From the IMG/VR virus record IMGVR_UViG_3300035181_001055, positions 62,754-126,753 of that record: DNA of 64,000 nt, one strand, 5' to 3'. Of this stretch, positions 19,486 through 33,429 are shown piece after piece (position 1 is the stretch's first letter; every line of letters starts with the position of its first letter). The notes below the pieces were generated by a model that saw nothing but the letters and a program-made list of their open reading frames with translations, was not told where the DNA came from and did no database searches. Source of the DNA: a virus. The translations under genes were made by a program, and so were the position numbers.

Positions 19486-20958
19486 ATGAAAGAGTTTTAT
19501 ACATTTGTTGATCAACAAGGTTCAAGAATGTTTCATCGGTACTGGGGCAGCGATGAAAGAAAGATTGAAGTTATTGAGGGGTTTCCTATCGAGCTATTTA
19601 TTGAAGGTAAACGCAGAGATTCTAAAGGATTGCACGGTGAAAGTTTAAGCAGAATTGAGTTTAATAGTATTGATGATGCTATGGAATTCATTCGTGAATA
19701 TAAAGACATTTCTCCCATTCACGGTCAAACAAGTCTCCCTCACCAATTTATCGCACATCGATACCCTAGTGAAATCGAATTTGATATTAGCAAGTTCGTC
19801 ATTGCTAACATTGACATCGAAACCAAGTTTGATAATGGATTCCCGTCGCCTGATCGCGCTGACCAGGAAATCACTGCCATCACATTGAAGCGTTTCGGAG
19901 AAGACAAGTTTGTGAGCTGGGGGATCAAGCCGTATAAGGTTAAAAATGATAGCGACGAGTACGTGTTGTGTGAAAATGAGAGCGATCTATTGGTCAAATT
20001 TATCAATTACTGGAATCGTCTAAAGCCAGACATCATTACTGGCTGGAACGTTCAGGGGTTTGACGTTCCTTATCTTGTGAATCGAATTACTAATGTTCTA
20101 GGGGAAAATGTTGCTGCTAAACTATCTCCTTTTCATCCTTATACGTCTCGCGTCTTCAATGAAATTGAAATTCAAGGTGAGCAAAAGAGCTATCGCATTC
20201 TTGGCATAACAGTTTACGATTATTTGGAGCTATACAAGAAATTCAGCCCGAGAAAACTTGAGCGATATTCTCTTGATTTTGTCGCCCATGTCGAGCTAGG
20301 TGAACGCAAAATCAATTACTCCGAGTACGGCAATCTGATGGATCTTTATGAAACGAATTATGATTTGTTTATGGATTATAACATCCATGACGTTCGTCTC
20401 GTGGAGAATATTGACAAGAAATTGAATTTCATGTTCTCTGCTTTAACAATGGCTTATATGGGCCATGTTCGTTTGCATGAGATTTTTTCACAAGTTCGTC
20501 TATGGGATACAATGCTCTATAATGAGCTGAGAGCTGAAGGTGTTCAAATCCCGCCTCAAGTTCGCCGAGGCAATGTTGATGGAATCGAAGGCGCATTTGT
20601 TAAAGACCCGATCCCTGGTCTTTATAAATGGGTTGTTTCGTTTGATTTGACGTCTCTGTATCCTTCAATTATCATGCAGTACAATCTATCCGCTGAAACT
20701 GCAGTTGAGCCTGCGGTGGGAAACTTGGTTAGCAAAATGGTTGATATGTCTTATGAAACATCCCGTTTGAAGGATGAAAATCTTACAATGACTGCTAATG
20801 GAGCGACTTTCACGCGAGATTTCAAAGGCGTTATGCCTCGATTGGTTGAAAAGATGTTTAGCGGACGGAAAAAATATAAGAATATGATGCTCGAGACAAG
20901 AAAAGATCTCGAGAGCATTAAAGCTGAGTTGAGCAAGAGAGGTATTAAGTATGATTGA
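19486..20958 (+). CDS. gp43A: DNA polymerase B, N-terminal subunit (exonuclease, palm motif A, first fingers helix)
   Basis: DIET, TGWNVQGFDVPY, DYNIHD and SFDLTSLYPS motifs; ends in the fingers. Confidence 0.93.
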   Translation: MKEFYTFVDQQGSRMFHRYWGSDERKIEVIEGFPIELFIEGKRRDSKGLHGESLSRIEFNSIDDAMEFIREYKDISPIHGQTSLPHQFIAHRYPSEIEFDISKFVIANIDIETKFDNGFPSPDRADQEITAITLKRFGEDKFVSWGIKPYKVKNDSDEYVLCENESDLLVKFINYWNRLKPDIITGWNVQGFDVPYLVNRITNVLGENVAAKLSPFHPYTSRVFNEIEIQGEQKSYRILGITVYDYLELYKKFSPRKLERYSLDFVAHVELGERKINYSEYGNLMDLYETNYDLFMDYNIHDVRLVENIDKKLNFMFSALTMAYMGHVRLHEIFSQVRLWDTMLYNELRAEGVQIPPQVRRGNVDGIEGAFVKDPIPGLYKWVVSFDLTSLYPSIIMQYNLSAETAVEPAVGNLVSKMVDMSYETSRLKDENLTMTANGATFTRDFKGVMPRLVEKMFSGRKKYKNMMLETRKDLESIKAELSKRGIKYD

Positions 20959-22219
20959 AATTAGTAAAATGACTGACGACGAGCTGCTTTCTTTGTATAA
21001 AGAAAAGAAAAATAAAGAAGCATCGTATGAAGCAATGCAATTGGCATTGAAAATTGCACTGAACTCTCTGTATGGCGCGCAAGCGAATCAGCATTTTCGA
21101 TATTACTCAACTGATATTGCTGAAGGTATTACATTAACGGGTCAATTGACGATCCAATATATTTCAAATGCTATCAATGAGTTTATGAACTCTAAGCTAG
21201 GAACTGTTGGAGTTGATTATGTGATCGCGAATGACACCGACTCGGCATACATTCGCCTCGACGAGCTGGTTGAAAGAATCGTTCCTAAAGATACGCCGAC
21301 ACAGAAAGTGGTTGATTTTATTGACAAGTTTGCATCAGTTGCTCTTGAGCCAATGCTTTCGAAGAAATTTTCTGAGTTGGCAGACTACGTCAATGCTCTA
21401 GAAAATAAGATGCACATGAAGCGAGAAGCAATTGCGGATCGCGGAATCTGGCGTGCAAAAAAGAACTATATTCTACAGGTTTATGACAATGAAGGTATTA
21501 GATACAATGAGCCTAAATTAAAGACAGTTGGAATTGAAACAGCGAGGTCTAGTACACCTGAAATAGTTCGTAATGCTTTGGAAAAATCTCTAACAATTCT
21601 TTTGAATGGAACTGAAGAAGAGATTCAGAAATTTGTGAAAGAGTTCAAAGAGGTTTTCATGAATTCGTCTATCGAGGAGATCGCTTTCCCTCGAGGCGTT
21701 AGTGATATTGACAAGTGGGTTGATCTTAGTGGGCGTGAAAAGTGGAAAACAGGCGCTCCTATTCATGTGAAAGCATCGATTGTTTATAATGACAAGCTTC
21801 GCACATCTGGTCTGCATAAGAGATATCCGCTCATCAAAAATGGGGATAAGATAAAATTTGTTTATCTCAAGACGCCGAATCCTGTCAGAAACAATGCCAT
21901 TGCTTTTACTGATTTTTTGCCTCCTGAGTTTCAGCTTGATAGTTATGTTGATCGTGAACTTCAATTCGAAAAGACTTTTCTAGAGCCGCTCAGAAGTTTC
22001 ACTGAAATCATGGGGTGGCATACCGAGAAGATCAATACAATAACTGGGTTTTTCGGAGACGATGCGGCGCCAAGCAAGGTGCGAGTCAGCGCTGTGACGA
22101 TGAGCGAATCATTCAAGCAACCCTCAAAAAATAGGTTGACAGCCGACCAAGAATGCCTTAAAATAAAGGCAAAATCGAGATCGCGACGCTCAGCGGCTAC
22201 GCTTGATGGGTTTTTCTGA
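20951..22219 (+). CDS. gp43B: DNA polymerase B, C-terminal subunit
   Basis: KIALNSLYG (motif B), NDTDS (motif C) and KKNY; ATG overlaps the gp43A end by 8 nt. Confidence 0.93.
   Translation: MIEISKMTDDELLSLYKEKKNKEASYEAMQLALKIALNSLYGAQANQHFRYYSTDIAEGITLTGQLTIQYISNAINEFMNSKLGTVGVDYVIANDTDSAYIRLDELVERIVPKDTPTQKVVDFIDKFASVALEPMLSKKFSELADYVNALENKMHMKREAIADRGIWRAKKNYILQVYDNEGIRYNEPKLKTVGIETARSSTPEIVRNALEKSLTILLNGTEEEIQKFVKEFKEVFMNSSIEEIAFPRGVSDIDKWVDLSGREKWKTGAPIHVKASIVYNDKLRTSGLHKRYPLIKNGDKIKFVYLKTPNPVRNNAIAFTDFLPPEFQLDSYVDRELQFEKTFLEPLRSFTEIMGWHTEKINTITGFFGDDAAPSKVRVSAVTMSESFKQPSKNRLTADQECLKIKAKSRSRRSAATLDGFF
22136..22164 (+). promoter_or_regulatory. sigma70 promoter inside the gp43B 3' end, reading into uvsX
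   Basis: TTGACA-17 nt-TAAAAT. Confidence 0.75.
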
Positions 22220-22227
22220 AGAAAGGA

Positions 22228-23316
22228 TTGAGGATGTCATCAATCAATGAATTTTTGAAACTGACTGGAAACGAATTTGCGAGTGTTGCTGAAGATGGAG
22301 TAACTGCTGGAGACGTATCAGGATGGGTTGATAGCGGCAGTTACGCATTTAATGCTTTGCTCAGTGGAGACATCTACAAAGGATTTCCAGGCAATAAGAT
22401 TGTGATTCTCAGTGGCGAGCCGAGCGTAGGAAAATCGTATTTTGCTCTTGCAGCAGCAAAGAACTTTTTGGAACAGAATAAAGATGGCATTGTCATCATG
22501 TTTGAAACAGAGAGCGCTCTGACGAAAGATATGTTGATTGAGCGCGGAATTGATGTTAAGCGATTCGGCGTTGTTCCGATAGCAACAGTTCAACAGTTCA
22601 AAACGCAAGCGCTTCGAGTTGTTGATAATTATGAGAAACAACCTAAAAATGAGCGTCAACCGCTTCTTTTCATTCTTGATTCTCTCGGAATGCTATCAAC
22701 CGATAAGGAAATGGTTGATAGCGTAGAAGGAAAAGATACTAGAGATATGACGCGAGCTCAGATGATTAAGGCTGCATTTCGCGTTCTTACTTTGAAGTTG
22801 GGACGCGCAGGAATTCCGATGCTCGTGACAAATCATGTTTACGAAGATGTAGGCGGTGGTCCTTATGCGTCCAAGAAGCAGGCTGGCGGGAGCGGAGCTG
22901 TATATGCGTCTAGCACTATTCTAACGTTGTCTAAAGCTAAAGAAAGGGATGCGTCCACGAATGAAGTTACGGGAGTGATTATTACAGCGACAGCTACTAA
23001 GAGTCGTTTCACGAAAGAAAATAGCAAGGTCAAGTGTTTGATTCGTTTCGACGGTGGGCTAGACCGCTATTTCGGTATGCTGGAATTGGCTGAAGAAGCC
23101 GGAGTATTCAAAAAGGTGAGCACGCGATATGAGTTAGAAGACGGCACTAAATTGTTTGGCAAGAATATTATGGAGAGCCCTGAGAAATATTTTACCACTG
23201 ACGTTCTTGAAAGGATTAATGAATATGTCAAGCGAAAATTCTGTTACGGAAATGGATCCGACCAAGCATTTGTTGATGAATCTTTTGAAGGAGAAAAAGA
23301 TACGAGTAACATTTAA
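22228..23316 (+). CDS. uvsX: UvsX/RecA-like recombinase
   Basis: GEPSVGKS, FILDSLG and TNHVY motifs. Confidence 0.95.
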   Translation: MRMSSINEFLKLTGNEFASVAEDGVTAGDVSGWVDSGSYAFNALLSGDIYKGFPGNKIVILSGEPSVGKSYFALAAAKNFLEQNKDGIVIMFETESALTKDMLIERGIDVKRFGVVPIATVQQFKTQALRVVDNYEKQPKNERQPLLFILDSLGMLSTDKEMVDSVEGKDTRDMTRAQMIKAAFRVLTLKLGRAGIPMLVTNHVYEDVGGGPYASKKQAGGSGAVYASSTILTLSKAKERDASTNEVTGVIITATATKSRFTKENSKVKCLIRFDGGLDRYFGMLELAEEAGVFKKVSTRYELEDGTKLFGKNIMESPEKYFTTDVLERINEYVKRKFCYGNGSDQAFVDESFEGEKDTSNI

Positions 23317-23503
23317 CAAATCAGATGGGTCCGAGCGAACTATGGTTTGTGTTCCATATGATGATGTTCCTCAAGACGAGAAAGCAAAGGATTCAAATCA
23401 GGAACGAAAAATCAACCCGACATTGGTCACTGTTTATGAGGAAGGCGTGGGATGGCGAAGCTTTCATTCGACAAAAGTTATTTCATATGAGGTGATTGAA
23501 TGA
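23276..23503 (+). CDS. Small WYL-like (SH3-fold) protein
   Basis: VTFNKSDGSERTM...GWRSF pattern; start chosen to minimise overlap with uvsX. Confidence 0.6.
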   Translation: MNLLKEKKIRVTFNKSDGSERTMVCVPYDDVPQDEKAKDSNQERKINPTLVTVYEEGVGWRSFHSTKVISYEVIE

Positions 23504-23847
23504 CGCAGAAAAAATTCATTATTCTTAAAGCTGAAACCTATGAAGAAGAGGGTGTGGAGAAGTTTCGTTTTGCTGCTTCTGTGAGCGATGACGATGATCT
23601 TTCGAATATAATTTTCTTCTTTGATGATTACACTCTTTATCAAGAAAATGGCGATTTGATAGCCCAGAGTCCTGTCCATTTTGCTGAACAGATTAATGGG
23701 GAGTTAGTTCCGATTAAAGAAGATGATTCTAGGCATGACATTCTGCGAGATGTTAGCGCAAAAATTCTCGATCAGGCAACAAGTATGTGCATGCGAGAGT
23801 TTGAAAAATCTGTTGAGAAAGCTGAATCGTTTATCGGCACAAGATAA
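23500..23847 (+). CDS. Hypothetical acidic protein
   Basis: ORF translationally coupled to the upstream gene. Confidence 0.65.
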   Translation: MTQKKFIILKAETYEEEGVEKFRFAASVSDDDDLSNIIFFFDDYTLYQENGDLIAQSPVHFAEQINGELVPIKEDDSRHDILRDVSAKILDQATSMCMREFEKSVEKAESFIGTR

Positions 23848-23899
23848 TTCATTAAATAGGTGTTGTAGCGTTTAATCCTGAGTAAGGAAAGGAGAAGAA

Positions 23900-24571
23900 A
23901 TGAGTTTTCAGAAAACAAAAATTGACGAGAAACTCGGAAAGCGTGTCAATGATTATCTTACTAGCATGGGCGTTCAAACCCCTATGCGAGAAAATGAATT
24001 GACTAACCAACAAAAGATCGACATCATTGAGAAAAAGATGATTGAAGTGTTGGAAGTGTTGGGGCTTGATTTGAAAGACGACAGTCTCGCAGAAACGCCT
24101 AAGCGAGTTGCAAAAATGTTTGTCAATGAGCTCTATTGGGGTCTTGATCCTGATAAGTTCCCTAAGTGCACCACCGTTGAAAATCGAATGGGATATGATG
24201 AAATGGTGGTTGAGAAAAACATTACTGTTATGTCAGATTGCGAACATCATCTTCGCCCGATTGTTGGTGTCGCCCATGTTGCTTACATTCCTAAAGGCAA
24301 GGTTCTCGGTTTATCGAAGATGAATCGAATTGTTGAGTATTTCGCTCGCCGTCCTCAAATCCAGGAGCGTCTCGCAGAGCAAATCTATCACGCTCTCGTT
24401 TATATTCTCGGCACTGAAGATGTTGCGGTAGTTATTGATGCTGAGCATTTCTGTGTTAAGCAGCGAGGCGTTGAAGACCAGAATAGCAATACTGTCACGA
24501 GTAAACTAGGCGGCGAATTCAAGAAAGATCCTTCTGTCCGTGCAGAATTCATGAGTATCATTCGCTCTTGA
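23900..24571 (+). CDS. folE: GTP cyclohydrolase I
   Basis: [23 protein letters not shown] and HFCVKQRG motifs. Confidence 0.96.
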
Positions 24572-24572
24572 G

Positions 24573-25310
24573 GTGATTATGAAAGATGTGTTTCTGAATG
24601 AGTTTCCGCTCGCGAAAAAAGCGGTTGTGGTGATGAGTGGCGGTATGGATAGCGCCATTGCAGCTCGACTTTCTGTTGAGAAACTAGGATCCGAAAATGT
24701 TCATGCTCTGAGTTTCTACTACGGTCAGAAACAGAGCATTGAGCTGGACATGGCGAAGATCAATGCAGAGAAATTGAAACTCGCCAAGCATACTTTAGTT
24801 GACATCACATTTCTTGGCGATATGGTTCGAGGTGTTAGCGCTAATATTTCGGGCGGCAAAGAAATGCCTACGATCCGCGATATCCTAGGCGATCCTCAGC
24901 CTGTTACCTACGTCCCGAATCGAAATGCAATTTTGCTGATGATTGCATCGAGTTATGCTGAAGCTAATGGCATTGATCTTGTTGTTACAGGACTACAAGC
25001 GCAAGATGAGTATTCTTATTGGGATACTACTCCGTCTTTTGTGAAGGCTGTCAATGATGTTTTGTCTCTGAACCGCCAGAATAAGATTCGGGTTCATGCG
25101 CCGTTCATGGGGAAGAACAAATCTCAAGAAATCGCTGCGCTTCTTGGAATGGATGGCAATATTGAGTTGCTGAAAACAACGATTACATGCTATAATCCTA
25201 CAGAAGACGTTAGCTGCGGGAAATGCCCGAGCTGCGCCGAGCGAATCGCAAACTTCAAGAAAGCGGGATTGGTTGATCCAATCAAGTACGCAATTGACAT
25301 TAAGTGGTAA
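24573..25310 (+). CDS. queC: 7-cyano-7-deazaguanine synthase
   Basis: SGGMDS PP-loop, YGQK, YVPNRN and CY...CGKCPSC motifs. Confidence 0.95.
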   Translation: MIMKDVFLNEFPLAKKAVVVMSGGMDSAIAARLSVEKLGSENVHALSFYYGQKQSIELDMAKINAEKLKLAKHTLVDITFLGDMVRGVSANISGGKEMPTIRDILGDPQPVTYVPNRNAILLMIASSYAEANGIDLVVTGLQAQDEYSYWDTTPSFVKAVNDVLSLNRQNKIRVHAPFMGKNKSQEIAALLGMDGNIELLKTTITCYNPTEDVSCGKCPSCAERIANFKKAGLVDPIKYAIDIKW

Positions 25311-25316
25311 TGTGAT

Positions 25317-25931
25317 ATGTGTGGTATTTTTTGCAGCTTTGATAGCAGGAAAGCGAGAGAGCTTCTTGCGCTAAATAGTTATAGAGGCTCTCATAGCTAT
25401 AGCTTCACTCTTGTCGGTAGTGACCCGATTCGAGGATTGGGTGAATTTGAAGCATCGTTGCTAGACAAAGAAGGCTACAAAATTTGCCATGTCCAAGCGC
25501 CAACGACCGAAGCAAGAGGATATGACACAATTCACCCTGCAGAGTTCAATGGTATGAGACTTTGGCATAATGGTATTGTGAAAGATTTCGATGTCAAGCG
25601 TCTTCAACAGAAGCATGGTGTTAACACTCCTTGGGATACTATGCTCATTCTTCTCGAACTTTCGTCTGCAAATTGGGAAGAGAATTTGAGTGAAATAAAC
25701 GGCAGTTTCGCTTGTATTCTTCAAGAGAATGATATAGTCTATGCTTTTAGGAATGAAATTTCTCCTCTGTTTTATGACGATGATTTGAATATAAGCAGCG
25801 TTATTTTTGAGGATTCACGACCGCTTCCACCCAATCGAATGTTCGTCCTTGATTTGGAAAGACGAAAAATTGAAGACATCGGGTGTAGCTTCAAAACGAA
25901 AGAAAATCCTTACTATTTCGGAGATGAATGA
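25317..25931 (+). CDS. Stand-alone class II (Ntn) glutamine amidotransferase
   Basis: N-terminal nucleophile MCGIF, RG, HP, WHNG, DT, NGSFA and R...SPLFY motifs. Confidence 0.88.
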   Translation: MCGIFCSFDSRKARELLALNSYRGSHSYSFTLVGSDPIRGLGEFEASLLDKEGYKICHVQAPTTEARGYDTIHPAEFNGMRLWHNGIVKDFDVKRLQQKHGVNTPWDTMLILLELSSANWEENLSEINGSFACILQENDIVYAFRNEISPLFYDDDLNISSVIFEDSRPLPPNRMFVLDLERRKIEDIGCSFKTKENPYYFGDE

Positions 25932-26851
25932 TGGAACATAAAGATATGAACGAAATTGCTGCTCGTTCTTTGGGTAGCAGCAACTCTTATGCCATCTACA
26001 CCGATAAATTTGATTCCAGTCTTTTGAATCCTATGCCAAGAGTTTTGGCTCGTCAAGGCTGGGGGATTTCGGGGAAAGAATTTGTTGGTGTAGATGTGTG
26101 GCACTGCCACGAAGCGACATTTCTTTTGAATAATGGGTGTCCTGTTGCGGGGACACTCAAATTCGTATATGATGCTGATACTGAGTTCATGGTTGAAAGT
26201 AAGAGTGCTAAACTCTATTTGAATTCATTTGATATGTGCAAAATGGGCGCTACTATGGCAGAAGCAATTGCTAATTATGAGTCCCAGGTTTCAAGTGATC
26301 TTTCCAAGACAGTTGGTGGTCAAGTTAAAGCGAAATTTTTTAATAGCATTGATTATTGCAATAGCGAAATTGCTGCTCCTTTTGACATATACTATGATGA
26401 TTTGTTCAAATTGATTGGCGTTGAAAACATCGAAAAAATGGTTTTCGATGATTACTATGCGAAAGAAAATCATATTAGTGTAGTTGATGGCGAGCAAACG
26501 CTCAAAGTATTCACTAACGTTTTGCGATCGCGCTGCCGCCATACGAAGCAAAAAGATACTGGAACGGCTTTCATCTTTCGTAGAAGCGATCTAACGTCTA
26601 TTGAGCCTTCTAGTTTGCTTCGTCAGATTGTGAGTTTGCGAGAAGTGAATGAATTCCATGAATTTTGCGCTGAGAAAATCTTTGTCGAAATCATGAAAAA
26701 ATCTCACGAAAATGATGATGTTATGGCGGCGCTGCTATATTCTCGTCGAGGCAGTTTGGATATCAATCCTATTCGCGCGACTAGATTTGATTTGATTCCT
26801 CATGAGCTCTATAGCGTAGATTGCTTGACTGATAAAACACAAGGCCAGTGA
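25928..26851 (+). CDS. queF: QueF (bimodular preQ0 reductase type)
   Basis: QueF motif VESKSAKLYLNSF, LRSRC (catalytic Cys position), EFHEFC and RRGSLDINP. Confidence 0.88.
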   Translation: MMEHKDMNEIAARSLGSSNSYAIYTDKFDSSLLNPMPRVLARQGWGISGKEFVGVDVWHCHEATFLLNNGCPVAGTLKFVYDADTEFMVESKSAKLYLNSFDMCKMGATMAEAIANYESQVSSDLSKTVGGQVKAKFFNSIDYCNSEIAAPFDIYYDDLFKLIGVENIEKMVFDDYYAKENHISVVDGEQTLKVFTNVLRSRCRHTKQKDTGTAFIFRRSDLTSIEPSSLLRQIVSLREVNEFHEFCAEKIFVEIMKKSHENDDVMAALLYSRRGSLDINPIRATRFDLIPHELYSVDCLTDKTQGQ

Positions 26852-26858
26852 GGATTCT

Positions 26859-28169
26859 ATGGAATTTAGGTATGTTTTTAGTGCGCCAGCGATGCTTCGT
26901 TTGATGCCTAGTACATGGGGAGAAGAGAATCCTGATGAATATGCTAAGTATGTTTGCATGGTTAAGGATGGAATTTTTCGTCTTAGAAAAGATGCTGAAT
27001 CTAAAATTCCTGGGATGAAATTTGGAATCGATCTTCTTTTCAATGCTTATACTGAAAAAGAATTTGGCAAATGGCTCAGAAAAAATGATACTTTCGGGTT
27101 CGAGAATCTGTATGCTGATTCTGGCGGATTGCAAATTGTCACTGCTGGCAGAAAAGTTGACGATGCTCTGAAATCTGAAATCTATTCGATTCAGAGTCAA
27201 GCTGATTTTGCGATGTGTTTTGACGAAATTCCTGCTAGCACCGTAGGTGTTGCTGATTCTAAGAGTAATCGGTCTCAAACAGGGAATAAGTTGTATCACC
27301 CTACCCGCAAAAAAGAAACTGCAACTAAAACCGCTAATAATATTCGTGAGCAGATTGAAATTCTTGAAAAAATAGGAACTGAAACAAAGGTTCATTACAT
27401 TATTCAAGGCAATACTCACCAAGATATGTATGAGTGGTTTGATGATGGCACGAAAGTTTTAACTGATTCGCATTTCGAAAGGGTTGGCGGTCTTGCTTTG
27501 GCAGATACGTGCATGGGTAACGGTCCTTTGGAGTCTATTGAGATGCTTGTTGCATATCATAGACTCCATAAAGAATTTGGACATGAAAAAGTCAAGAATC
27601 ACATTCATTTGCTCGGATTGGGGAGTGTCAAACGACTATTGCCTGCTATCTATTTGATGAAAAGCGAATTCTTGCCTAAAAAATTGACAATTAGTTTTGA
27701 CAGCACTACATTTAGTATGAGCTATTTCATGGGTCGTTTTATTGACAGTCAAGGGAATAAAATTCAAGGAGACCCTCAAGAAATTCGTCGCATGTTTCAT
27801 ATGATATATCAATATTTCGGCGACATCTATCGAAAATATGTCCCTGACCTAGATGAAGATCATTTCATCGATCATGTTTCAAAGGAAATTAGGAGTGTCG
27901 CCGACACTCTAAATAATGCTCGTCCCGATATTCAAGCTCTTGTGAGAGCAAATATTACGCTCACTGATTGCTGGCAAATTCTTGGATTTATTGAGCAAGT
28001 CAAGAAAATAATTGAAATTGCAAAGCATGACAATTCGCCTCTTGGGATGCTCAAATATGTGAAAGATTTCGAAGATTATTTGCATTGGCAAAGAGAGTTC
28101 GGTCATTTTGTTCCTAGTAAGAGAATCAGACGCGAAAGCTGCGCTTGTCTTGACAATTTCTTCGTTTGA
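26859..28169 (+). CDS. dpdA: TGT-fold guanine transglycosylase, probable DpdA-like DNA base-exchange enzyme
   Basis: DSGGLQ (TGT DSGGFQ), AMCFDEIP, IIQG, HLLGLG and FDSTT motifs; embedded among que genes. Confidence 0.75.
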   Translation: MEFRYVFSAPAMLRLMPSTWGEENPDEYAKYVCMVKDGIFRLRKDAESKIPGMKFGIDLLFNAYTEKEFGKWLRKNDTFGFENLYADSGGLQIVTAGRKVDDALKSEIYSIQSQADFAMCFDEIPASTVGVADSKSNRSQTGNKLYHPTRKKETATKTANNIREQIEILEKIGTETKVHYIIQGNTHQDMYEWFDDGTKVLTDSHFERVGGLALADTCMGNGPLESIEMLVAYHRLHKEFGHEKVKNHIHLLGLGSVKRLLPAIYLMKSEFLPKKLTISFDSTTFSMSYFMGRFIDSQGNKIQGDPQEIRRMFHMIYQYFGDIYRKYVPDLDEDHFIDHVSKEIRSVADTLNNARPDIQALVRANITLTDCWQILGFIEQVKKIIEIAKHDNSPLGMLKYVKDFEDYLHWQREFGHFVPSKRIRRESCACLDNFFV

Positions 28170-28205
28170 TGCTAGAATTTTGTTTCATCTATAGGAATAA
28201 TCTCC

Positions 28206-29099
28206 ATGAAAATCAGAACAAGTGAGGTTTTTGCTAGTTTCCAAGGCGAAGGACTATATGCTGGTGTTCCTAGTCTTTGGATTCGTTTCTTCGGATGCAA
28301 TCTAGAATGCAACGGATTCGGCCAAAAAGACCCGTGCAATCCAGAAACATATGTTCTCCCATACAAAACTATTGATATCAGCGACATAAAGCGAATGGAA
28401 GACTTGCCTGTTTTCCAGTGCGGCTGTGACTCTAGTTACAGCTGGAGCGCTAAGTACAAGCATTTGGCTAAGGATTGGAATGAAACAGAATTAGTGGACG
28501 AGTTGCATAGGCTAGGCTCGGAGAGATTTGGGATGGTTGATGGTTGGTTCAATCAAAGAACAAAACAACCGATTCAGCTTTGTTTCACGGGCGGTGAGCC
28601 CATGTTGAATCAAAAAGCAGTCGTGGCAATTCTTGATGAAATACAGAAACGATATGGCGATTTTGGCCCTGATTTGGTGACTTTTGAAACAAATGCGACG
28701 CGCTATCTTACAGATGAATTGAGAGAGCGTTTAGAGTGCAGGGATTTCAAAGTCAATTTTGCTTGCTCGCCTAAGCTGTTCACTGTTAGCGGGGAAAAAG
28801 ACGTTGTTAATTTTAACGTCATTGAAGATTACATGCACAATTCAGATTCTGGTATTCTGAAATTCGTGGTGAATGGATCTGAAGAGTGCTGGGATGAGCT
28901 TAGTGGGTATGTAGAAGATCTTGTCGATCTTCTAGCTCAGTATCCGAATTGGAGTTTGTGGGCGATGCCTGTTGGCGCAACGAAAGAACAGCAAGAGTCG
29001 CCTTCCGTTGCCGAGATTGCAAATGAGGCGATGCGTCGAGGGTTCAATATTGCAACTCGCAATCACACTTATGTATATGGCAATGTGGTGGGTAGCTGA
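28206..29099 (+). CDS. queE: 7-carboxy-7-deazaguanine synthase (radical SAM)
   Basis: SEVFASFQGEG, IRFFGCNLEC...CDS, FTGGEP, ETNAT and SPK motifs. Confidence 0.92.
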   Translation: MKIRTSEVFASFQGEGLYAGVPSLWIRFFGCNLECNGFGQKDPCNPETYVLPYKTIDISDIKRMEDLPVFQCGCDSSYSWSAKYKHLAKDWNETELVDELHRLGSERFGMVDGWFNQRTKQPIQLCFTGGEPMLNQKAVVAILDEIQKRYGDFGPDLVTFETNATRYLTDELRERLECRDFKVNFACSPKLFTVSGEKDVVNFNVIEDYMHNSDSGILKFVVNGSEECWDELSGYVEDLVDLLAQYPNWSLWAMPVGATKEQQESPSVAEIANEAMRRGFNIATRNHTYVYGNVVGS

Positions 29100-30475
29100 T
29101 GGATGTTACTGATGAAAAATTGATTCTTAGTTCTTTAGTGGCTGATGATGATTATGTTCGTCAGGTTTTGCCTTTTTTGCAAAGCGAGTATTTTCATGAC
29201 AGGATAGAGCGATCCGTTTTTGAATCAATCAGATCTTACATCAATGAGTACAATGTTCTGCCTAATAAGACAACTCTCCTAGTCGATATTCGAGGCCATG
29301 AGAAGCTGAACGAAAAAGAAATCTCTGAAGCTGAAACTCTAATAAGAGAACTGTTTGACATTGATCGCCCGTCTGACCCGAAATGGCTTATTAAGAAGAC
29401 GGAGGAGTTTTGCCAAGAGAAGGCTGTTTACAATGCTATAATGAAGGCGATTGCTATATATGACGGGTCAGAAAAAACTGTTACTCCTCATGCAATCCCC
29501 GACATGATCAAAGACGCGATAAGCATTAGCTTTGACAGTCATATTGGCATGGATATGTATGATGACGCTGGTGCTCGCCACGATTACTATACTCTTCCTA
29601 GCAGCAAAATTCCATTCGACATTGAAATTCTTAATGAGATTACAAACGGCGGCGCTGGTAGAAAAACGCTGAATGTCATTGTTGCAGGCGTAAATGTCGG
29701 CAAAACCTTGTCCTTGGTACATCTAGCATGCGCGTATGCTCGAGCTGGTCTGAATGTTCTATATTTCACCATGGAAATGCGTGAAGAAGAAATTCTGCGT
29801 CGAATTGACGCAAATATGCTGAAAACACCTATCAATAAAATCGAAGAAATCGGACGAGATTCGTTCATCGATAAGGTGGAGAAGCTTAGGGCTAAGTCTT
29901 ACGGGAAGATTAAGGTTAAGGAGTATCCGCCTGGGGCAGCACATGCTGGACACTTCAAACATATCATCGGTGAGTTGAAGATGAAGCAGAGGTTCGTCCC
30001 TGATGTGATAATGGTTGATTATATTGGGATTGCCGCTAGCTCTCGAATGAAGATGGGGCAGCAGAATAGTTATTTCTATTTGAAGGCAGTTGCGGAAGAA
30101 CTTAGAGCATTGGCTGTTGAAACCGATACGGTTCTTTGGACTGCTATGCAGCTAACTAGAACGGGTATAACAAATACCGATGTTGAAATTACAGATGTCT
30201 CGGAATCTATGGGCATTCCTGCGACCGCTGATTTCATGCTGTCGGTAACTAGAACAGAAGAACTCGACGGATTAGGACAGGTTCTTTTCAAGCAACTTAA
30301 GAATCGTTACGGGAATAAGACGAACAAATTGAGATTCGTTGTTGGCATTGATTTAGATAAACAAACGCTATATGACGTGAATCAGAGTGAGCAAGATGAT
30401 ATTGTTGTGAGCCAACAAGTTTCTGTTGCTAATGTAGGCAGTCTTAAAGACAAGTTCAAGAGATTGAACGGATGA
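29099..30475 (+). CDS. gp41: Replicative helicase
   Basis: AGVNVGKT, TMEM, VDY, SESMGIPATAD and QLKNRY motifs. Confidence 0.96.
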   Translation: MDVTDEKLILSSLVADDDYVRQVLPFLQSEYFHDRIERSVFESIRSYINEYNVLPNKTTLLVDIRGHEKLNEKEISEAETLIRELFDIDRPSDPKWLIKKTEEFCQEKAVYNAIMKAIAIYDGSEKTVTPHAIPDMIKDAISISFDSHIGMDMYDDAGARHDYYTLPSSKIPFDIEILNEITNGGAGRKTLNVIVAGVNVGKTLSLVHLACAYARAGLNVLYFTMEMREEEILRRIDANMLKTPINKIEEIGRDSFIDKVEKLRAKSYGKIKVKEYPPGAAHAGHFKHIIGELKMKQRFVPDVIMVDYIGIAASSRMKMGQQNSYFYLKAVAEELRALAVETDTVLWTAMQLTRTGITNTDVEITDVSESMGIPATADFMLSVTRTEELDGLGQVLFKQLKNRYGNKTNKLRFVVGIDLDKQTLYDVNQSEQDDIVVSQQVSVANVGSLKDKFKRLNG

Positions 30476-30479
30476 AGCT

Positions 30480-30487
30480 CATAAATA
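30480..30487 (+). promoter_or_regulatory. Late-promoter variant CATAAATA
   Basis: One mismatch to consensus, 28 nt upstream of 30516. Confidence 0.65.
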
Positions 30488-30515
30488 ATCATATTCATAA
30501 CAAAAAAGAAAAGAT

Positions 30516-31622
30516 ATGCTGAAATTTAAGCAGTTTCTGCTTTTTGAGGGCGGTAATGTAGTTATTGACGACCAAGGAGCGGATAGAATTGATTTAAGCA
30601 AAATAAACAGAACAGAAATTGTCAAAACTTTGACTGATGGTCTGAAAGCGATAAATCGCGCATTTGAAAAGCAGAATGGGTTGCCTCTTTGGAGCGACGA
30701 AATTTTCAAATCAAATCAATTTCTGAGTGGCAGTGCGTTTCATTTCTTTGATCTGAAGAATATTAAAGACGATGAATTTGTAAAAGTTAAGCCTTCTGTC
30801 GGGGATATTGACACTCAAGTTGATGGAACGCTCGACACTCTTATTGTCAATTTCTTGAATTCAAGCAAAGGTAAGAGATTTGGGCCATTAACTCTTATTG
30901 GGTTCAAAACTAGTCATGGTCAGCGTATAACATTATGGCGTTTGGATAAATTTGATATGAATGTTCAGATTGACTTGGAGTTAGTTGAATATAGCGCTGA
31001 TGGTAAGCCGACTCCTTGGTCACAATTCAGTCATTCGAGCTCTTGGAAAGACCTTAAACAAGGTTTGAAGGGTGTGGCTCACAAGTATCTTATGCAAGCA
31101 ATAAATGCTCGCAGTTTACATGATTTGGTTATAAAAGCCAGGACACAGAGAAGCAAAGATAAGATTACGAAGAGCTCTCAGATGACGTTTTCGGTTACGA
31201 ATGGGCTTCGTCAGCGTCTCGAGCCAGTTCTCGATTCTAAAGGCAATCATGTGACAGTTAATGGGTTGCCTGCTTATCGTGAGCTTAGCACATCTGAAAG
31301 TCAAGGCAACACGGACTTGAATTATATTTTCAAGACTTATTTCGGCGAAGACCCTAATGAAAAAGACATTGAAAAAATGAGCAGTTTCATTGGTCTTATT
31401 GGATTGATTGAGAAATATTTCAGCAAAGAAGAACAAAAAATGGTCGTCGATGGGTTCATGCATAAATTGTGGGGTCCAGGCGCTCAAGGATTGTATAGAG
31501 GAGATAAAGAGCGAGACTATAATGAGAAAATGGCCATGGCAAATTATCTTTTGAATTCTCTTGGTGGGTCTATCGATACTTACCTCAAAATGATTGAAAC
31601 TTACTACAAAACATACGAATGA
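30516..31622 (+). CDS. Putative Pol-beta-superfamily nucleotidyltransferase
   Basis: LSGS...VGDIDTQV and QIDL acidic triad; GLKG motif. Confidence 0.6.
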   Translation: MLKFKQFLLFEGGNVVIDDQGADRIDLSKINRTEIVKTLTDGLKAINRAFEKQNGLPLWSDEIFKSNQFLSGSAFHFFDLKNIKDDEFVKVKPSVGDIDTQVDGTLDTLIVNFLNSSKGKRFGPLTLIGFKTSHGQRITLWRLDKFDMNVQIDLELVEYSADGKPTPWSQFSHSSSWKDLKQGLKGVAHKYLMQAINARSLHDLVIKARTQRSKDKITKSSQMTFSVTNGLRQRLEPVLDSKGNHVTVNGLPAYRELSTSESQGNTDLNYIFKTYFGEDPNEKDIEKMSSFIGLIGLIEKYFSKEEQKMVVDGFMHKLWGPGAQGLYRGDKERDYNEKMAMANYLLNSLGGSIDTYLKMIETYYKTYE

Positions 31623-32511
31623 TAATTAGTTTCAAAGAATTCATTGCAGAGAGTGTTGCTACCACTACTCGTCAAGGTATCACTCATCTTCAGGACATGA
31701 AGCCTGAAGAATTTGTTTCGTGGATCAAAAGTGTAAAAGCTGCAGGCGGAGTTCTATCTAACTATAAAACGGTTATGAAGATAGATGGCCTAGGAGCTCG
31801 CTTTGGGCGTGATTCAAGCGGAAAGATATTCTTTGAGGGTAGCAGAACTGGTCCAATTTTTGACAGCGGAGCTTTTAGCGCACATGCCATAGCTAAAGGT
31901 GCCTCGGATGAAATTGTGCTTAGGGCTAAGCATTATGACGATATGCTCGAACTTTTCAAAACTGCTGATTTCATGAAAGCGGTGCCTAATGATACGAAGG
32001 TTGTTTGCGAAATCTTTTACAATCCAATGGCAAAAGAAGAAGAGGATGGCATTACCTTCGTCACCGTCAAGTATGACAAGACTAAATTGGGTAGTTTAAT
32101 GAGTATCATGCCCTATACTGTTCTTCAGGCTAGTACTGGTTTAGAACACCCTGATAAGAAAAAAATTCTCGATGATTTATACAAGAAAAGCAACGAGAAA
32201 ATTAAAATCATTGATCCTAATCTGAAGATGGGGTCAATTGATATTTCTGGTATAATAAACACCGTTGCTACTATTGAAGATGGCGCTCTTGAAATACTAA
32301 AAAGTAGAAAAGCTATTGATAGAGATGCAAAGCAAAATATTTTAGATATCATTCAAAAAGCAAAAAATGATTTAGCTTCTTATTTGCTTGCACATCCAGG
32401 CATTGAAGATAAATTCAAGTTAGGTCAAAATATTGAAGGCATTGTTATACACGTAAATGATAAGCCGTTCAAAATAACGACCGACGAATTCAAAGCTAGT
32501 AAGAGGAAATC

Positions 32512-32515
<4 letters not shown>
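31619..32515 (+). CDS. Putative ligase-like (covalent nucleotidyltransferase) protein
   Basis: KIDG (motif I), CEIF (III), EGIVI (IV) and FKI (V). Confidence 0.55.

Positions 32516-33429
<914 letters not shown>

Follow-up and report, generated by a model that had tools for sequence, protein, structure and literature searches.

Modification of DNA with 7-deazaguanines is a major means by which phages escape restriction, and the pathways responsible are being catalogued gene by gene. In phage 9g, a protein in which a glutaminase is fused to QueC (Gat-QueC) gives dG+, the DNA form of archaeosine (G+), when combined with DpdA in E. coli (PMC6884629, Table 1). In the Vibrio phage VH7D, QueF complements an E. 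coli queF deletion, phage QueF proteins being true preQ0 reductases, and DpdA2 puts preQ1 into DNA (PMC10516641). The phage DNA of phi-Grn1 and of phi-ST2 contains dPreQ1 at 816 and 668 and mdPreQ1 at 35 and 44 per 10^6 nucleotides (nt), respectively, with no dG+, dPreQ0 or dADG (PMC10516641, Table 1), and in phage 6E35.1a a 295-Da nucleoside that fits dPreQ1 takes the place of approximately 15% of dG (PMC12028318). Phage nt-1, which has no QueF, shows low levels of dPreQ0, dADG and dG+, the last at 44 per 10^6 nt (PMC6884629), and coexpression of its ArcS homolog with DpdA2 produces dG+ (PMC10516641). Pseudomonas phage pf16 carries six "queuosine" open reading frames (ORFs), and its DNA resists PvuII, EcoRV, BamHI and HindII, and every other tested enzyme with G or C in its site (PMC5587285). 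The present analysis concerns a 64-kb stretch of DNA from an IMG/VR virus record, referred to below as the window, in which queC is followed by a gene for a free-standing N-terminal nucleophile (Ntn, class II) glutaminase, here called Gat, and by a gene for a complete QueF.

A prediction made from the window's sequence (the original prediction) held that this trio might signal a new base. The QueC-Gat-QueF trio is not new, as it occurs in phages deposited in GenBank, some of which have been chemically analyzed and yield known bases. On balance, we favor a reading in which Gat is the glutaminase partner of QueC and the base made by this phage is dPreQ1, the dPreQ1 part of this reading being more secure than the part concerning Gat.

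The biosynthetic operon and its glutaminase

The record is 126,753 bp in length and is estimated to be approximately 75% complete; the window is its second half. Judged by the genes of the window, which include a family B DNA polymerase, a RecA/UvsX-like protein, a DnaB-like helicase and a T4 baseplate protein, the source phage is a T4-like myovirus. Genes in the window are densely packed on the + strand, and those for 7-deazaguanine synthesis and insertion form a single operon between the recombinase and the helicase, in the order FolE-QueC-Gat-QueF-DpdA2-QueE and all on the + strand:

23900..24571, + strand: FolE, GTP cyclohydrolase I, first step to preQ0 (PF01227, 216 bits; NF006824, 305 bits against a cut-off of 202)
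24573..25310, + strand: QueC, preQ0 synthase, a PP-loop ATPase with a zinc site (PF06508, TIGR00364, motifs)
25317..25931, + strand: Gat, free-standing Ntn (class II) glutaminase, 204 amino acids (aa) (MCGIF start, family profile, AlphaFold2 fold)
25928..26851, + strand: QueF, bimodular NADPH-dependent preQ0 reductase, preQ0 to preQ1 (PF14819, PF14489, motifs)
26859..28169, + strand: DpdA2-type DNA guanine transglycosylase, 436 aa (tblastn to pf16 gp80 and VH7D DpdA2; phrog_10773)
28206..29099, + strand: QueE, radical-SAM 7-carboxy-7-deazaguanine (CDG) synthase (phrog_2076, QueE-like, E 2.9e-47)

The three ORFs on which the original prediction was built, namely QueC, an Ntn glutamine amidotransferase (GATase) beginning with MCGIF, and QueF, are real and intact. 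A TAA stop, a 6-nt spacer and the Gat ATG form the junction between QueC and Gat, and the TGA of Gat overlaps the ATG of QueF as ATGA. Promoter-like and terminator-like sites over positions 22000-31000 showed no excess relative to shuffled sequence, and a megablast search of the cluster against a phage collection returned no match.

Of the 34 homologs aligned, 33 share the Cys2 of Gat, and the start of the remaining one is truncated. The single Gat sequence scores below threshold against Pfam GATase_7 (20.9 bits, cut-off 25), while 22 of the 34 family members match this model at E<0.01 (best 9e-8), and a search of the PDB with a profile of the 34-sequence family gave GlmS and PurF glutaminase domains as matches (E 2.7e-5). 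As modeled by AlphaFold2 (pLDDT 93.2, pTM 0.90), Gat has the four-layer alpha-beta-beta-alpha Ntn fold; a Foldseek search with this model returned the GlmS glutaminase domain as the top match, along with PurF, asparagine synthetase and EgtC, all at probability 1.00 (1xff, 1ao0 and 1ecf at E ~1e-9 and TM scores of 0.66-0.70). Invariant in the family are Cys2, Arg23-Gly24, His84-Asn85-Gly86 and Asp107-Thr108, of which the last two align with the HNG and DTE motifs of GlmS that supply the oxyanion hole (N98-G99) and the residue binding the alpha-amino group (D123). Gln60, in the motif HVQAPTT (residues 58-64, ~25488-25508), is invariant at the position where GlmS and PurF have Arg73, the residue that binds the alpha-carboxylate of glutamine, and Lys89 (~25581-25583) is a family-specific invariant following the HNG motif. 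Gat matches phrog_12378, a family of unknown function, and is annotated as hypothetical in Vibrio phages and pf16. Two members of the family are longer, at 327 and 349 aa, owing to C-terminal extensions that are uninformative; one of these is DUF3310.

QueC is well supported by both profiles (PF06508, 175.6 bits; TIGR00364, 168.3 bits, above the cut-off of 150.3), retains the SGGMDS P-loop and the zinc site C206-x8-C215-x2-C218-x2-C221, and is 70% identical to QueC of pf16. Its start is ambiguous: the GTG at 24573 chosen by the ORF tool lies one base past the FolE stop, and an alternative ATG at 24579 follows GAGGTG. QueF exceeds the cut-offs of QueF_N (PF14819, 83.6 bits) and QueF (PF14489, 37.6 bits) and falls below that of the NCBIfam equivalog TIGR03138 (173.6 bits, cut-off 293.45). 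It aligns over its full length with the sequence of the Vibrio cholerae QueF crystal structure 3BP1 (E 1e-30), and by this alignment the catalytic set is kept: ESKSAKLY, which fits the NADPH motif E(S/L)K(S/A)hK(L/Y)(Y/F/W) (PMC10516641), the thioimide-forming Cys203, Asp209 and His244-Glu245. The description of this protein as a bimodular QueF with the ESKS.KLY motif and the catalytic Cys therefore stands. From these motifs and from its VH7D homolog, to which it is 36% identical, the QueF of the window is predicted to be a preQ0 reductase.

DpdA2 matches pf16 gp80 (E 4e-56) and VH7D DpdA2 (E 9e-40) in tblastn and is thus homologous to an experimentally validated DpdA2; its match to the tgt_general model is weak. 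QueE has N-terminal QueE matches in NCBIfam and a match to Pfam Fer4_12, and is 35.5% identical to the QueE of pf16. QueD lies outside the window, approximately 75 kb upstream of the cluster in the same record (G000:C1:11007-11930, equivalent to L008:2008-2931). It is a 307-aa tandem PTPS-like protein found through its homology to VH7D gp010 and also homologous to the PTPS-like ORF387 of nt-1; at 22.1 bits it falls just under the cut-off of 22.4 for PF01242 (Pfam PTPS) and was missed at the default threshold.

Linkage of Gat to QueC

Homologs of Gat number 302 clusters at 90% identity in a word-indexed search and 320 representatives at 50% identity (E <= 1e-30) in an exhaustive search, all of ~200-230 aa and all beginning at the N-terminal Cys. 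Cultured carriers are pf16 (52% identity) and 49 Vibrio phage records (~35% identity), among them KVP40, VH7D, phi-Grn1, phi-ST2, 6E35.1a and nt-1. Weak tblastn matches in Pseudoalteromonas, Rhizobium and Zobellviridae phages were dropped, as they belong to unrelated amidoligase/gamma-glutamyl-cyclotransferase clusters. In the four contexts inspected (pf16, VH7D, nt-1 and the window), Gat lies directly 3' of QueC, with the QueC stop and Gat start overlapping in pf16, VH7D and nt-1; in the remaining cultured-phage records the Gat match lies beside a QueC/ExsB annotation.

The co-occurrence of the three genes was surveyed at 80 IMG/VR loci with a Gat homolog, representing 69 distinct Gat sequences, of which three were too near a contig end and 66 could be judged. 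QueC is upstream of Gat on the same strand at every one of these 66 distinct loci, an order too consistent to be due to chance. The gap between the two genes is <= ~70 nt in 47 of them and 270-1220 nt in the others, and in the examples of wider gaps inspected the extra length comes from a few small genes or the insertion of a homing endonuclease. At one locus (L006:6815-7782), QueC and Gat are separated by a gene of PP-binding (carrier protein-like) type and one for a class II aldolase. No Gat homolog was found outside QueC clusters in any context examined. The longer proteins included no fused relative of the Gat-QueC type, and neither did the 150 highest-ranking matches from 1.84 billion representatives.

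The genes that would tailor preQ0 are variable. Of the 43 loci with enough flanking sequence, 26 combine QueF with a formyltransferase (DpdN-like), two combine it with a CxxCxxCC protein (DpdM-like), and four have QueF as the sole tailoring gene; ten loci have no tailoring gene and one has an ArcS-like gene. Besides nt-1, a complete 149.5-kb genome with terminal repeats carries QueC-Gat and has QueF nowhere in it. Two near relatives of the window phage, L010 and L011, whose Gat proteins are 68-70% identical to that of the window, have the order FolE-QueC-Gat-DpdA2-QueE, with no QueF between Gat and DpdA2. Since the pair is kept across these tailoring contexts, QueF-less relatives included, the conserved unit is QueC-Gat and QueF is an optional module. 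The genes of the predicted trio are confirmed; the emphasis placed on the trio as the key unit is misleading.

Comparison of L010:9001-9606 and L011:9001-9612 with window positions 25928-26851 shows QueF as a clean insertion or deletion. These sister phages probably differ in carrying dPreQ0 as opposed to dPreQ1, and their DpdA2 proteins, together with that of the window phage, would form a natural pair for mapping preQ0/preQ1 specificity. The commonest setting of QueC-Gat, that of the 26 loci with a formyltransferase (e.g., L004:4455-5024 and L005:5024-5569), combines QueF and Formyl_trans_N (DpdN-like) with a kinase of the AAA_28/dNK-like kind and a 262-aa protein that is conserved, has no Pfam match and may be the DpdA. 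This gene content suggests that modification of the fdPreQ1 type occurs widely among uncultured marine myoviruses.

The role of Gat and the base produced

In the pathway we propose, FolE, QueD and QueE would convert GTP to CDG, which QueC would adenylate, amidate with ammonia to the amide ADG, and dehydrate to the nitrile preQ0. QueF would then reduce preQ0 to preQ1, and DpdA2 would exchange guanine in the phage DNA for preQ1, giving restriction-resistant dPreQ1 DNA. Gat would enter at the amidation step: hydrolysis of glutamine by its N-terminal Cys would yield the ammonia with which QueC turns CDG into ADG. QueC and Gat together would thus form a two-subunit glutamine-dependent preQ0 synthase, built like AsnB from an Ntn glutaminase and a PP-loop ATPase. 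The nitrogen donor of QueC is ammonia (PMC13329287), and PP-loop relatives of QueC such as GMP synthase and asparagine synthetase are paired with glutaminases, either fused or as separate subunits (PMC13329287 and established knowledge). Gat is proposed to be the QueC glutaminase subunit because it has no synthase domain of its own, is translationally coupled or nearly so to QueC, and is indifferent to the way in which preQ0 is tailored. That the two are unfused would follow from their order, as an Ntn nucleophile must be a free N-terminus and Gat is encoded after QueC. dPreQ1 is the predicted base because QueF is intact, DpdA2 has the preQ1-inserting enzyme of VH7D as a relative, and within the 126.7 kb of the record neither DpdM nor any DpdN-like, ArcS-like or DpdA3-like gene was found.

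A role limited to feeding ammonia to QueC was among the options in the original prediction, and it is the one favored by the comparative evidence, in that Gat goes with QueC both where QueF is present and where it is lacking. The other two options are not supported. One was a mixed dG+/dPreQ1 genome, which would be expected if QueC and Gat were a split 9g-type archaeosine synthase, with Gat directing ammonia onto the preQ0 nitrile to form the amidine G+; dG+ would then occur alone in the QueF-less relatives and mixed with dPreQ1 here. We regard this as unlikely. The fused 9g enzyme provides a precedent for dG+ synthesis in E. coli, and a trace of dG+ is present in nt-1, a QueC-Gat carrier, but the latter is accounted for by the ArcS homolog of nt-1, and dG+ is zero in phi-Grn1 and phi-ST2, which have the same QueC-Gat-QueF-DpdA2 set as the window (PMC10516641). 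Gat also co-occurs with ArcS-like genes and with QueF, a combination that would entail redundancy or competition were G+ the product of Gat. As for the proteins themselves, the 9g Gat domain shares a short PTT...HNG stretch with the Gat family, and beyond these 36 columns BLASTP and hhalign comparisons of Gat with 9g Gat-QueC found no significant similarity. Compared with other GATases, the Gat domain of Gat-QueC is no nearer to the family (hhalign probability 2%), a PHROG scan at E values up to 10 gave no link from Gat to the Gat-QueC family phrog_10428, and the absence of fused long forms from the searches described above also argues against a split synthase.

The altered glutamine pocket, with Gln in place of Arg, leaves room for a different Gat substrate, and Gat might be an EgtC-like Ntn amidohydrolase, possibly yielding an undescribed base or intermediate. 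Such an enzyme could strip a pathway intermediate of a gamma-glutamyl or other acyl group, or act on a 7-deazaguanine amide or nitrile. We consider this quite unlikely: the rest of the glutamine site is retained (Cys, Arg-Gly, Asn-Gly, Asp-Thr), the glutaminase domains of true amidotransferases give the best matches in sequence and fold, no conserved ligase that could add such a group lies beside Gat, and targeted liquid chromatography-mass spectrometry (LC-MS) of three carriers detected known bases only. The points in its favor are the invariant Gln60 and the family-specific Lys89, the presence of the free-standing Ntn hydrolase EgtC among the structural matches, and the resistance of pf16 DNA to all tested enzymes with G or C in their sites (PMC5587285). 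A more general role, in which Gat would serve marine T4-like phages as a glutaminase or an auxiliary gene of nitrogen metabolism and have nothing specific to do with the 7-deazaguanine pathway, seems hardly credible. Phages do carry many auxiliary metabolic genes and Gat lacks a synthase domain, but QueC lies directly upstream at all 66 loci, in divergent phages with otherwise rearranged clusters and often with overlapping or nearly abutting codons, and in the contexts examined Gat is confined to such clusters.

The remaining option of the original prediction was a further amidated derivative. For the lineage related to pf16, the possibility that QueC-Gat, QueF and DpdA2 make a second amidated 7-deazaguanine, whether dG+ beside dPreQ1 or an undescribed base, is very unlikely, as phi-Grn1, phi-ST2 and 6E35.1a show known bases only (PMC10516641, PMC12028318). 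The chemical characterization of trio carriers largely settles the matter against a new base, with the qualifications that the Gat of these three carriers is only ~35% identical to that of the window, and that the Gat gene lay outside those experiments. The QueC-Gat-QueF trio is no marker of a new base, which is sobering for the original claim.

Several points weigh against Gat as the glutaminase partner of QueC in a dPreQ1 pathway. Many phages and bacteria make preQ0 by QueC alone, so that Gat is dispensable for this step. The evidence for an association of Gat with QueC is gene order, and the change of Arg to Gln60 implies that glutamine may not be the substrate of Gat. The fused Gat-QueC of 9g yields dG+ rather than dPreQ0, so a Gat beside QueC can mean amidine formation (PMC6884629). 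A further tailoring gene could lie in the part missing from the record, and for the closest cultured relative, pf16, the DNA data are of restriction resistance, the chemically analyzed carriers being the more distant ones noted above.

Should Gat be a subunit of QueC, these phages would need glutamine, and not free ammonia, to make preQ0. We suppose that the benefit would be one of flux, as modifying a large share of the guanines in hundreds of 150-250 kb genomes per burst would need millimolar-equivalent amounts of preQ0, and that in marine hosts limited for nitrogen glutamine is in far better supply than free ammonia. Dependence on glutamine would suit the high flux required to modify up to ~15% of guanines in such nitrogen-poor hosts. 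The novelty is modest and lies in the role of Gat, a widespread and strictly QueC-linked Ntn glutaminase with an unusual substitution in its glutamine pocket. This QueC-adjacent glutaminase is found in hundreds of T4-like phage lineages, including KVP40, nt-1 and VH7D, and is missing from the published gene tables examined: Hutinet et al. 2019 give the neighbors of the nt-1 Gat (YP_008125324) in their gene table and leave out Gat itself, and a free-standing Gat beside QueC is not discussed in the literature searched, the scope of which excludes the supplementary tables of PMC10516641 and a 2024 MMBR review.

Neighboring genes and relation to known systems

Two other regions of the window were noted. 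The family B DNA polymerase is encoded in two ORFs on the + strand (19486-20958 and 20951-22219; 490 and 422 aa) with an 8-nt overlap and a +1 frame change. The same split is present in the relatives L009, L010 and L011, while pf16 has a single ORF; because it is shared by these relatives, the split looks real, reflecting a two-cistron arrangement or a programmed frameshift rather than a sequencing error. Between the DnaB-like helicase and the baseplate gene (30516-33429, + strand) lie three ORFs, two of which have no Pfam match (368 aa, phrog_19290, function unknown; and 298 aa), the third being a 305-aa cytidylyltransferase-like protein with a low-complexity tail.

Of the known systems, EgtC of ergothioneine synthesis resembles Gat as a free-standing protein of ~230 aa with a class II GATase fold, an N-terminal Cys and a Foldseek probability of 1.00. 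The two are only 10-11% identical, however, and EgtC cleaves a gamma-glutamyl conjugate and feeds ammonia to no partner; a conjugating enzyme comparable to that of the EgtC pathway is not conserved in the phage Gat clusters. The proposed QueC-Gat enzyme resembles asparagine synthetase B and the two-subunit archaeal GMP synthase, in which an Ntn or other glutaminase gives ammonia to a PP-loop ATP pyrophosphatase (ATP-PPase), the activator of a carboxylate or carbonyl. AsnB consists of one chain, and the acceptor here would be CDG. The ATP-PPase of archaeal GMP synthase is a relative of the QueC family, and its GATase subunit is separately encoded by an adjacent gene (PMC13329287), but that subunit belongs to the class I (triad) GATases (PF00117) and is no Ntn enzyme.

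The Schizotequatrovirus/Mylasvirus vibriophages (VH7D, phi-Grn1, phi-ST2, 6E35.1a, KVP40 and nt-1) and pf16 have the same set as the window phage, comprising FolE, DpdA2, bimodular QueF (lacking in nt-1), QueC, Gat, QueE and a long PTPS-like QueD. The order differs, being FolE-QueC-Gat-QueF-DpdA2-QueE in the window and FolE-DpdA2-QueF-QueC-Gat in the vibriophages and pf16, and DpdM was not found in the record of the window. The Gat-QueC fusion of phage 9g and Crenarchaeota, which serves the archaeosine/dG+ route, likewise brings together a class II glutaminase and a PP-loop module of the QueC type for a 7-deazaguanine pathway, and the QueC of the window is 29% identical to the QueC half of the 9g protein (E 2e-20). 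The glutaminase is N-terminal in the fusion, whereas the window has separate genes with QueC before Gat; the two Gat sequences show no detectably greater similarity to one another than they do to GlmS or PurF, and 9g keeps the Arg that is replaced by Gln in the Gat family of the window. The products differ as well, as 9g makes dG+ and the analyzed carriers of the split pair with QueF are without dG+. If Gat does serve QueC, the QueC-Gat pair would be a split counterpart of Gat-QueC, and comparison of the two would be useful for understanding how the fused enzyme makes archaeosine.

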